A stretch of 29,854 bases of DNA from Nanobdellota archaeon (GTDB taxonomy: Archaea; Nanobdellota; Nanobdellia; SCGC-AAA011-G17; JAFCDX01), in the NCBI GenBank assembly GCA_018816585.1, contig JAHIVQ010000047.1:1-29854 (forward strand), read 5' to 3'. Shown one piece after another: positions 2,622 through 22,557 of this stretch (position 1 is the first letter of the stretch; each line of letters starts with the position of its first letter). The notes under the pieces were generated by a model that saw only the letters and a program-made list of their open reading frames with translations, had not been told where the DNA came from and did no database searches. A program made the position numbers and the translations under genes.

Positions 2622-2840
2622 TTATTCCACGAAATATGCTTTATTTGTAAATTTTTTTTTGCATTTTTTACAATGCCATATGCCTGCTGCTAATCTTTTG
2701 ACTTGTCCTGTTTTTTTACAATAAGGGCATTTCTTCTTTTTTCTTTGCTTTTGTTCAATATCAATTACTCGCTGCCTTACTCCCTTTCCATATCTTGAAC
2801 CAAATCTTCCAGCAGACTTAACTTTTTTTGTTCCTACCAT
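2622..2840 (-). CDS. rpl37ae: 50S ribosomal protein L37Ae (eL43)
   Basis: SAGRFGSRYG, CPYC and GIWHCKKC motifs. Confidence 0.95.
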   Translation of the reverse strand: MVGTKKVKSAGRFGSRYGKGVRQRVIDIEQKQRKKKKCPYCKKTGQVKRLAAGIWHCKKCKKKFTNKAYFVE

Positions 2841-2936
2841 TTTTAAATCTTTTTAAAATCCATTATTTATAAATGTTTAGTATGGGGCTACCCGGATTTG
2901 AACCGGGGTCGCAAGGTCCCAAACCTCGAAGCGTAA

Positions 2937-2963
2937 TTGCTTTTGGTTTTATTATTTACCAAC
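2937..2963 (-). other. tRNA intron 2 (27 nt, D-loop position 19/20)
   Basis: GCTT/AAGC central helix, bulges GGG and AAT, inner TTGGT/ACCAA hairpin, short TA/TA outer helix. Removal gives the D-loop AGCTTGGTTA. Confidence 0.85.
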
Positions 2964-2980
2964 CCAAGCTAGCCCATAGC

Positions 2981-3007
2981 GTGATGCTTTATTATTTATT
3001 TTAAAGT
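2981..3007 (-). other. tRNA intron 1 (27 nt, position 3/4 in the acceptor stem)
   Basis: CCCATAG/CTATGGG outer helix, GATG/CATC central helix, bulges GGA and ACG, inner CTTTA/TAAAG hairpin. Cleavage after the second bulge nucleotide restores GGGGCTA, which pairs with TAGCCCC. Confidence 0.85.
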
Positions 3008-3013
3008 CCCATC

Positions 3014-3826
3014 CTATGGGTTATATATTACCCCATTAGCTTTACAAGGTTGTATATCATTAATAAATCTTACTACTTCATCTTTTCTGTACAAGCAAGC
3101 ATTTCTTTTATTCGCCTTTGCAAAGGAATATCCTAAATTTTTAGTTACTTCTTTAAAATCATCTAATAATTGCTGATTAAAATTTGTGAACTTTATATAA
3201 ATATGTTTCTCTCTTTTACAAAAATAAATACAACCATCAGTATCGATTAAACCACCTATGCATCTTTTTGAATATAATTTATTATTCTTAATCCAATTAG
3301 GGATTCCAACTTGGCTTTTTATTTTATCTCCTTTTTTAAGACCTAACTTAACTAACCTTTTAATTAAATTTTGATTATAATAATACAAATGTGCTTCATT
3401 TCTTTTTGGATTAATTCTTTTTTTAAATTTAAGATTAAAAGTTTCTTTAAATAAATTATTTACATATTCTATATAATTTGTATTTCTTTTATCGAAAGTG
3501 ATATTTAATGTATTTTTATATACACTTCCATCCCCCAATATTATTCCAATAAATTCTGCTAATTCTTTATTTTTTCTAATTGGTTTAACAGGTTCTGAAT
3601 ATGCGTATTTTCCTAAATTTTTAACATAATCAAATTTAATCTCTTTTAATTTTATCTTTAAATTCAGCATTTCTTCTAATTTTTTAAGGTGATTCTCATT
3701 TATACTTAAATTTCTATAATAAATATTCTTTACTTCAAAACCCAATTTTTGCCTTATTTGTCTTAAACTGTAACCACTTTTTCTTATACTTCTTTTTAGT
3801 TCATTATTTATTAGATATCTCTTCAT
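3014..3826 (-). CDS. Free-standing LAGLIDADG (DOD/intein-type) homing-endonuclease-like protein with putative N-terminal HTH
   Basis: Two motifs, LAEFIGIILGDGSV and CIGGLIDTDGCI, both with the catalytic-position Asp. No intein splicing blocks or host extein are visible. The N-terminus has LKRSIRKSGYSLRQIRQKLG. Confidence 0.8.
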   Translation of the reverse strand: MKRYLINNELKRSIRKSGYSLRQIRQKLGFEVKNIYYRNLSINENHLKKLEEMLNLKIKLKEIKFDYVKNLGKYAYSEPVKPIRKNKELAEFIGIILGDGSVYKNTLNITFDKRNTNYIEYVNNLFKETFNLKFKKRINPKRNEAHLYYYNQNLIKRLVKLGLKKGDKIKSQVGIPNWIKNNKLYSKRCIGGLIDTDGCIYFCKREKHIYIKFTNFNQQLLDDFKEVTKNLGYSFAKANKRNACLYRKDEVVRFINDIQPCKANGVIYNP

Positions 3827-22372: not shown

Positions 22373-22455
22373 AGGGCGCACTGGGATTCGAACCCAGGAT
22401 TCGAGGGTTCTGCATTAAATTGCAGCCTCGTGCCTTACCGCTTGGCGATGCGCCC
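22373..22455 (-). tRNA. tRNA-Cys(GCA) with a 12-nt intron at 37/38
   Basis: GGGCGCA...CGAGG CTGCAA [TTTAATGCAGAA] C CCTCG...TTCGAAT...TGCGCCC T. Intron at 22419-22408 in a bulge-helix-loop; U73 discriminator. Confidence 0.92.
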
Positions 22456-22458
22456 AAA

Positions 22459-22533
22459 CGGGCCCGACGGGATTTGAACCCGCGACCCTCTGCTTAGAAG
22501 GCAGATGCGCTATCCAGGCTGCGCTACGGGCCC
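22459..22533 (-). tRNA. tRNA-Arg(UCU), intronless
   Basis: GGGCCCG TA GCGC...TCTGC CTTCTAA GCAGA...TTCAAAT...CGGGCCC G; 3 nt upstream of tRNA-Cys, so co-transcription is likely. Confidence 0.96.
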
Positions 22534-22557
22534 ATAGAAATATCAACTAGTTTATTC

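Follow-up and report, generated by a model that had tools for sequence, protein, structure and literature searches.

The stretch of DNA analysed here, hereafter the window, covers 29,854 nucleotides of contig JAHIVQ010000047.1 from a Nanobdellota archaeon, and it carries on its minus strand, at positions 3010-2883, a gene for the proline tRNA with the anticodon UGG, tRNA-Pro(UGG). The gene is divided into three exons (G1-G3, G4-G19 and U20-A73) by two introns at sites 3/4 and 19/20, each framed by a bulge-helix-bulge (BHB) splice motif. Judging from the sequence and its comparison with relatives, we consider it highly probable that this locus is the working, and probably the sole, gene for tRNA-Pro(UGG) in a groundwater archaeon of the Woesearchaeota type (DPANN), that both introns are old, and that the motif at 3/4 is built with the help of the 5' leader. 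Genes of this kind are rare but have been described before. Standard annotation would wrongly call an essential tRNA absent, and the tRNA in question reads CCA, the codon that makes up half (50%) of the proline codons in the genome.

The divided tRNA-Pro(UGG) gene and its orthologues

The assembly to which the window belongs amounts to 878 kb in 116 contigs and is 88% complete; its nearest named relatives are metagenome-assembled genomes of Candidatus Woesearchaeota from groundwater. In the unspliced locus ARAGORN finds no tRNA, and the Rfam tRNA model gives 22 bits, below its cut-off of 29, which bears out the original prediction that a standard scan would not recognise the complete gene. On the minus strand, exon 1 (GGG, G1-G3) lies at 3010-3008, with a junction that agrees with intron-free orthologues, and is followed by intron 1 (site 3/4, 27 nt, ACTTTAAAATAAATAATAAAGCATCAC) at 3007-2981. 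Exon 2, of 17 nt at 2980-2964, comprises G4-G19 including base 17a, and intron 2 (27 nt, GTTGGTAAATAATAAAACCAAAAGCAA) interrupts the D-loop at 2963-2937, between bases 19 and 20. Exon 3 (U20-A73, 54 nt, 2936-2883) contains the UGG anticodon arm, the GGTTCAAATCC T arm and TAGCCCCA, and is 94-100% identical to its counterparts in relatives; CCA is not encoded at the 3' end of the gene.

Removal of both introns yields a 74-nt cloverleaf, which ARAGORN calls tRNA-Pro(tgg). This product has an acceptor stem of 7 bp, anticodon and T stems of 5 bp each and a D stem of 3 bp plus a U13-C22 mismatch; all four stems are intact, and UGG sits in an anticodon loop of 7 nt. The exons have a GC content of 60.8%, against 27.7% for the genome.

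The comparative set consisted of 240 genomes of the order. One member of the same family (G007) has a tRNA-Pro(UGG) gene free of introns, which agrees with the spliced product at 68 of 74 positions and differs in a compensatory way in the D stem, and another member of the family (G005) has the D-loop intron only, at the same base, and no 3/4 intron. Together these two genomes confirm the splice junctions to the base, and the cuts proposed at the outset do restore a regular tRNA. In addition, the gene for ribosomal protein L37ae (2622..2840, minus strand, identified by a Pfam match) lies just downstream and adjoins tRNA-Pro(UGG) in about 35 relatives. Since L37ae is found downstream of this tRNA order-wide, the locus is the orthologous tRNA-Pro(UGG) locus.

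It should be noted that the BHB motif was dropped as stand-alone evidence. A genome-wide scan counted 33 motifs as strict as that of intron 1, against 35 after shuffling of the sequence, and because the count is no higher than in shuffled sequence, the case rests on the junctions, the orthologues and the covariation described below. What is above chance is that two motifs fall at exactly the junctions that give back an orthologue-like tRNA, and that these motifs covary. The split at 3/4 and 19/20 put forward by the original prediction is thus supported by the spliced cloverleaf, by the junctions of the orthologues and by covariation. An alternative parse, with the GGGG at 3034-3031 as exon 1 and an intron of about 51 nt at site 4/5, was rejected, as no BHB supports it.

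That the locus is a decaying pseudogene, with a working tRNA-Pro(UGG) in the unassembled 12% of the genome, appears extremely improbable. The incompleteness of the assembly, its 116 contigs and the mere 28 or so tRNA-like matches found in it speak for such a reading, but in genomes with tRNA genes concealed by introns a low tRNA count is to be expected (PMC5829648). A pseudogene would also have to have kept four intact stems, exons 92% identical to those of an orthologue with changes that are compensatory, its syntenic position beside L37ae, and two inserts with splice motifs at the exact junctions, motifs that furthermore covary in relatives. The original prediction had named a second intact tRNA-Pro(UGG) as evidence to the contrary; none was found in the 88%-complete assembly, and the only other proline tRNA found in the genome has the anticodon CGG.

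Genes of this sort have been anticipated. Kaneta et al. (2018; PMC5829648) predicted tRNAs in one Woesearchaeota and one Pacearchaeota genome and pointed to hidden tRNA genes that are still to be found by hand, and the present locus is such a gene. That paper describes no tRNA-Pro gene split at 3/4 and 19/20, no dependence on a leader and no linkage to an endonuclease.

Other tRNA genes of this genome are interrupted as well. Most of the approximately 28 tRNA-like matches carry introns, and several implausible anticodons given by ARAGORN (Pyl-cta, Phe-aaa, Asn-att, Val-aac) probably come from misparsed intron-containing genes. A further tRNA missed by ARAGORN lies on contig C80 (4202-4300, minus strand); it has a Val(GAC)-like anticodon region and a T arm and acceptor ending in GGGCCCA, and its D-loop is seemingly broken by a BHB-like insert of about 21 nt (AATCTCTTTGAAGATGGACAA). 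In the window itself, positions 22373-22534 (minus strand) hold tRNA-Arg(UCU) in tandem with tRNA-Cys(GCA); the latter contains an intron and is left unnamed by ARAGORN without its intron mode.

A splice motif built from the leader

In the archaeal BHB, a central helix of 4 bp separates two bulges of 3 nt, one on each strand, and the cut falls after the second base of each bulge; the parses given here assume this standard layout. The 5' strand of the motif around intron 1 (BHB 1) is supplied by a leader segment, CCCATAGGAT, at 3020-3011 of the minus strand. Its CCCATAG pairs with exon nucleotides 5-11 (CTATGGG) in an outer helix of seven perfect pairs, and its GAT, together with G1, pairs with CATC of the intron to form the central helix GATG:CATC, with G2 G3 a and a c G4 as bulges. 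The inner hairpin (CTTTA/TAAAG, 5 bp) closes a loop of 10 nt, so that intron 1 reads A-CTTTA-AAATAAATAA-TAAAG-CATC-AC and the motif is a strict hBHBh' of 7, 4 and 5 bp. Intron 2 reads G-TTGGT-AAATAATAAA-ACCAA-AAGC-AA. In its motif (BHB 2) the central helix is GCTT:AAGC, the bulges are G18 G19 g and a a U20, and the inner hairpin TTGGT/ACCAA has 5 bp, but the outer helix, beside the D stem, counts just 2 bp. The original prediction was right in giving both motifs 3-nt bulges and a 4-bp helix; strictness, however, holds for intron 1 only, and the relaxed form of the second motif had gone unmentioned.

The covariation in relatives argues for the participation of the leader. Across ten genomes, 97 of 110 cells are paired in the leader:exon helix and the central helix of this motif (BHB 1), compared with 21-61 when one strand is slid along the other, and double-sided changes occur at six pairs (the pair -4:5, for instance, appears as G-C, A-T and T-A). 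In BHB 2, too, both strands of the central helix have changed together in relatives, with G-C/A-T and T-A/C-G swaps. On the basis of these compensatory changes and of the structure, the dependence of the 3/4 splice motif on the leader is well supported at the level of sequence. As BHB 1 is built from the leader, splicing would have to precede 5' trimming, an order already proposed in the original prediction. The locus is a clean and comparatively well-supported case of a splice signal that requires a leader, a requirement that would fix the order of two processing steps.

Sequencing runs from DNA gave the same picture of the gene. Contigs from runs X1 and X2, from which the window probably stems, contain the whole gene unchanged. 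In two further studies, a contig from run X4 covers 2948-3120 without differences and a contig from run X3 covers 2959-3120 with one substitution, both including the leader, exon 1 and intron 1; the X3 and X4 contigs end before all of intron 2 and exon 3 are spanned. The contigs of the four runs contain no intron-free allele of this organism, and intron-free tRNA-Pro genes from other organisms in the same runs join at 2936. The substitution in X3, seen in one contig of depth 2, is a G>T at 3018 of the plus strand (C>A on the minus strand, leader position -8) and would cost the outer helix of BHB 1 its pair with G9.

Non-canonical BHB introns and tRNA genes with several introns are known from Thermoproteales, where site 3/4 is an extreme case (Sugahara et al. 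2008, as related in PMC4090602). The present gene resembles them in having short BHB introns, presumably cut by the tRNA splicing endonuclease EndA, and several of them in one tRNA gene. It differs in its host, a mesophilic groundwater DPANN archaeon of 28% GC, and in that a single alpha-type EndA gene was found here, unlike the (alpha-beta)2 EndA with a crenarchaeal loop of Thermoproteales. What is added beyond those cases is the covariation of the leader strand with exon bases 5-11 in ten genomes. A likeness also exists with the split and permuted tRNA genes of Nanoarchaeum equitans and Caldivirga (PMC4090602), in which sequence from outside the tRNA lends a strand to the splice motif before being discarded. 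In contrast to those genes, the present one is contiguous, and its leader would stay on exon 1 after splicing, which calls for separate 5' trimming.

Age and resemblance of the two introns

Both intron sites are occupied in many relatives. Site 3/4 is filled in at least 11 of the 240 genomes, with positional homologues of intron 1 in G051, G147, G159, G160, G140, G049, G186, G210, G026 and G156. The D-loop site 19/20 is filled in at least 10, and these include, besides the present genome, G005, G136, G131, G140, G154, G069, G159, G123 and G049. Three genomes (the present one, G140 and G159) have both introns. Other combinations were observed as well, namely a 3/4 intron with a T-loop intron in G156 and a 3/4 intron with an anticodon-loop intron in G160, and within the order as many as three sites of tRNA-Pro(UGG) harbour introns. 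In family f22 (G124, G127, G117 and G111; loci L042, L044, L045 and L049), an insert of about 30 nt follows G4 (site 4/5), to which no clean BHB could be fitted; G127 combines this insert with an endonuclease-like gene upstream.

The two introns of the present gene are nevertheless alike in some respects. As the original prediction had noted, both measure 27 nt, have the layout 1+5+10+5+4+2 and share the 11-mer TAAATAATAAA, and it inferred that, within the gene, one had arisen as a copy of the other. This inference is not supported, and we regard a recent transposition of this kind as very unlikely. In its favour, a shared substring of at least 11 nt has a chance of about 0.001-0.002 among random AT-rich genomic 27-mers or shuffled introns, and other introns of this genome lack such loops; by a hand estimate, however, that chance rises to about 0.04 once two A-rich loops made of A and T only are given. 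The identity in register is 13 of 27, the 11-mer is displaced by 4 nt from the structural register, and the stems and central helices of introns 1 and 2 are unrelated. The sites themselves are filled across families by introns with unrelated hairpins: the 3/4 introns of relatives have loops of 3-5 nt and different hairpins, and intron 2 of G005 has a similar A-rich loop in a gene that lacks intron 1. A search of the genome with either intron gave no further copy, only AT-rich partial matches of 15-18 nt.

Copying of introns to new sites was described by Fujishima 2010 (cited in PMC4090602) for highly similar introns at different sites and in different genes. High similarity across sites, in that sense, was not found here; the two introns share only the A/T-rich 11-mer, out of register, and there are no other copies. 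From the sequences, both introns are old residents of tRNA-Pro(UGG) in the order and not a recent intragenic copy, and their resemblance is best read as a parallel expansion of A/T-rich loops, or at most as local homogenisation.

Promoter, processing and the neighbouring endonuclease gene

A TATA-like box, TTTATTAA, lies at 3067-3060 of the minus strand, within the last codons of an upstream open reading frame (ORF) and 25 nt upstream of a GGGG at 3034, and from its sequence and position it would be the promoter of the tRNA. In the other tRNA genes of the genome, which look nearly leaderless, a TTTWTAAA-like box precedes G1 by 23-25 nt, and the G usually comes directly after a TAT. The spacing of TTTATTAA fits the element GGGGTAA (3034-3028) and not G1, and so predicts a leader of 24 nt. 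G154 has no 3/4 intron, and there the same box (AAGATTTATTAA) stands 24 nt before the true G1. A leader of the predicted length would stand out among the tRNA genes of this organism. In several families, a conserved ATTGGNTGGA was seen in the tRNA-Pro(UGG) promoters, between TATA box and transcript start (L062, L065, L014, L069, L074 and L027), with or without the 3/4 intron.

The GGGGTAA at the presumed transcription start (3034-3028, minus strand) resembles the true 5' acceptor strand, GGGGCTA, and can be described as a decoy of it. Before splicing, RNAfold pairs this decoy with the 3' acceptor strand at a probability of 0.95-1.0; after splicing, decoy and true stem are about equal. Of the 11 alleles with a 3/4 intron, 7 have a decoy-like element at a distance of 22-26 nt downstream of the TATA box, at a combined p of 5e-5 in a shuffle test that ignores kinship. 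These folding and shuffle results point to a real pattern, which may serve as a clamp on the 3' end.

The upstream ORF (3014..3826, minus strand) encodes a protein of 270 amino acids similar to LAGLIDADG homing endonucleases (Pfam LAGLIDADG_3, PF14528, E=1.5e-9), with two LAGLIDADG motifs, ILGDGS and LIDTDGC, that contain acidic residues. Its coding part runs from 3826 to 3017, and its stop codon, TAG at 3016-3014, falls within the leader strand of BHB 1. The ORF thus overlaps the presumed TATA box and the leader, and its conserved C-terminal RFIN is encoded by the TATA-like box (GATTTATTAAT), as is also the case in G049 and G154.

This overlap raises the possibility that the tRNA lacks a promoter of its own and derives from the 3' end of the endonuclease mRNA, the whole upstream message being the leader. 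We consider this unlikely. The ORF does extend into the leader, and a clear TATA box is present about 30 nt before its ATG, but TTTATTAA keeps before the GGGG at 3034 the spacing of the other tRNA genes of the genome, the matching box of G154 stands before G1, and relatives without the endonuclease gene keep the TATA box, the decoy and the leader before their 3/4 intron.

Regarding the processing enzymes, the genome contains one EndA gene, of the alpha type (189 amino acids, above the Pfam and TIGR00324 cut-offs). The protein aligns without gaps through the region of the Tyr/His/Lys residues of M. jannaschii EndA, which we take to be the catalytic triad, and it also aligns to a second solved EndA through the conserved triad region. 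Its best match among solved structures is the alpha subunit of N. equitans, which is partnered by a beta subunit, and the next is the alpha4 enzyme of M. jannaschii. A putative second EndA paralogue on contig C96 was discarded, being a 97%-identical duplicate at a contig end with the same RNase Z-like neighbour; that the EndA/RNase Z-like pair was assembled twice at 97% identity (C38:7227-7793 and C96:2-238) points to strain heterogeneity in the bin. The ligase RtcB is represented by a partial match to its C-terminal part on contig C44, and the RNase P protein Pop5 is present. According to Kaneta et al. (2018; PMC5829648), single-subunit EndA of DPANN archaea (alpha4-type, with an L3 loop) is linked to many disrupted tRNA genes and incomplete tRNA sets. 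The present locus is in keeping with this.

With these components, the following pathway can be proposed. The transcript would begin with a leader that, at about 24 nt, is unusually long. The last ten bases of this leader would bind exon bases 5-11 as well as the end of intron 1, giving the strict BHB around 3/4, and the second, relaxed BHB would form in the D-loop. The single alpha-type EndA would cut both motifs and RtcB would ligate the three exons. The real acceptor stem would form only after ligation, whereupon RNase P could trim the leader, and CCA would be added last.

Several observations weigh against a working gene processed in this way. A single-gene EndA of the alpha4 type is classically held to need strict motifs, and BHB 2 has an outer helix of 2 bp only. 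No EndA beta subunit was found by protein and NCBIfam searches of the 88%-complete assembly, although it could lie in the missing 12%; the search with NF007085 matched the alpha gene only. The RNase P RNA was not found in the assembly either, and it is present in five of the five relatives tested, including one of the same family. The promoter was assigned from spacing and a single comparison, and the runs that cover the locus are of DNA only, so that splicing is read from the sequence. Finally, the D stem contains the U13-C22 mismatch, but orthologues carry a pyrimidine-pyrimidine mismatch there too.

Another aspect to consider is the association of the endonuclease gene with introns near the 5' end of the tRNA. 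Homologues of the ORF lie upstream of tRNA-Pro in six relatives, and a C-terminal remnant is left in G154. Of the 15 alleles that have an intron at 3/4 or 4/5, 7 are accompanied by the gene; of the approximately 30 that have no such intron, not one is, the remnant of G154 aside (Fisher p of about 1e-4 to 1e-3, uncorrected for kinship). The proteins are only 25-48% identical between families, and thus show no sign of recent transfer. As far as can be read from the genomes, this suggests that endonuclease and 5'-proximal intron may be mobilised or retained jointly.

The 3/4 intron and the leader might even be the footprint of a homing-endonuclease cassette, that is, an insertion of about 51 nt that breaks the target of the free-standing enzyme at the 5' end of tRNA-Pro and of which EndA removes 27 nt and RNase P the rest. 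This concerns the origin of the arrangement and is compatible with a working, leader-dependent tRNA gene; we put it forward tentatively, as a possibility with the odds against it. The two LAGLIDADG motifs, the stop codon inside the BHB leader strand, the co-occurrence just described and the decoy GGGG, which stands at the distance from the promoter that G1 has in alleles lacking the 3/4 intron, all agree with it. However, eight alleles with a 5'-proximal intron lack the endonuclease gene, the divergence between families bears no mark of recent transfer, and shared ancestry followed by joint loss could give the same association. Furthermore, the cleavage site and the activity are only putative, and a search of solved structures with the protein gave no significant match, so that it has no close solved relative. 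Somewhat more doubtful is the fuller proposal that intron 1 and leader are the two halves of one such insertion of about 51 nt, which would shield the 5' end of the tRNA from the endonuclease and be removed by EndA (the 27-nt intron) and RNase P (the leader), the displaced acceptor strand being kept as a decoy that clamps the 3' end until the RNA is spliced. If this were true, it would show a concrete way in which homing endonucleases can give rise to protein-spliced introns close to the 5' ends of tRNAs. The endonuclease link and the decoy strand are in any case testable leads on the origin of archaeal tRNA introns.

Comparable situations have been described as collaborative homing of a free-standing endonuclease and an intron without an ORF, in cyanophages (F-CphI and psbA, PMC6083498) and in T4 (mobE, PMC2790892), where likewise an endonuclease gene lies beside a gene, an intron may interrupt the target and the two co-occur. 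Those are group I introns of phages with demonstrated cleavage, whereas the present introns are protein-spliced and archaeal and the endonuclease is known from its sequence; the likeness is thus an analogy only. Three distant paralogues of the endonuclease (25-27% identity) were also observed in the genome, at C100:2803-3231 (plus strand), C13:1103-1618 (plus strand) and C50:1734-2132 (minus strand). The one on C100 is followed, after about 270 nt, by a tRNA gene (C100:3501-3605), and the one on C13 adjoins another tRNA.

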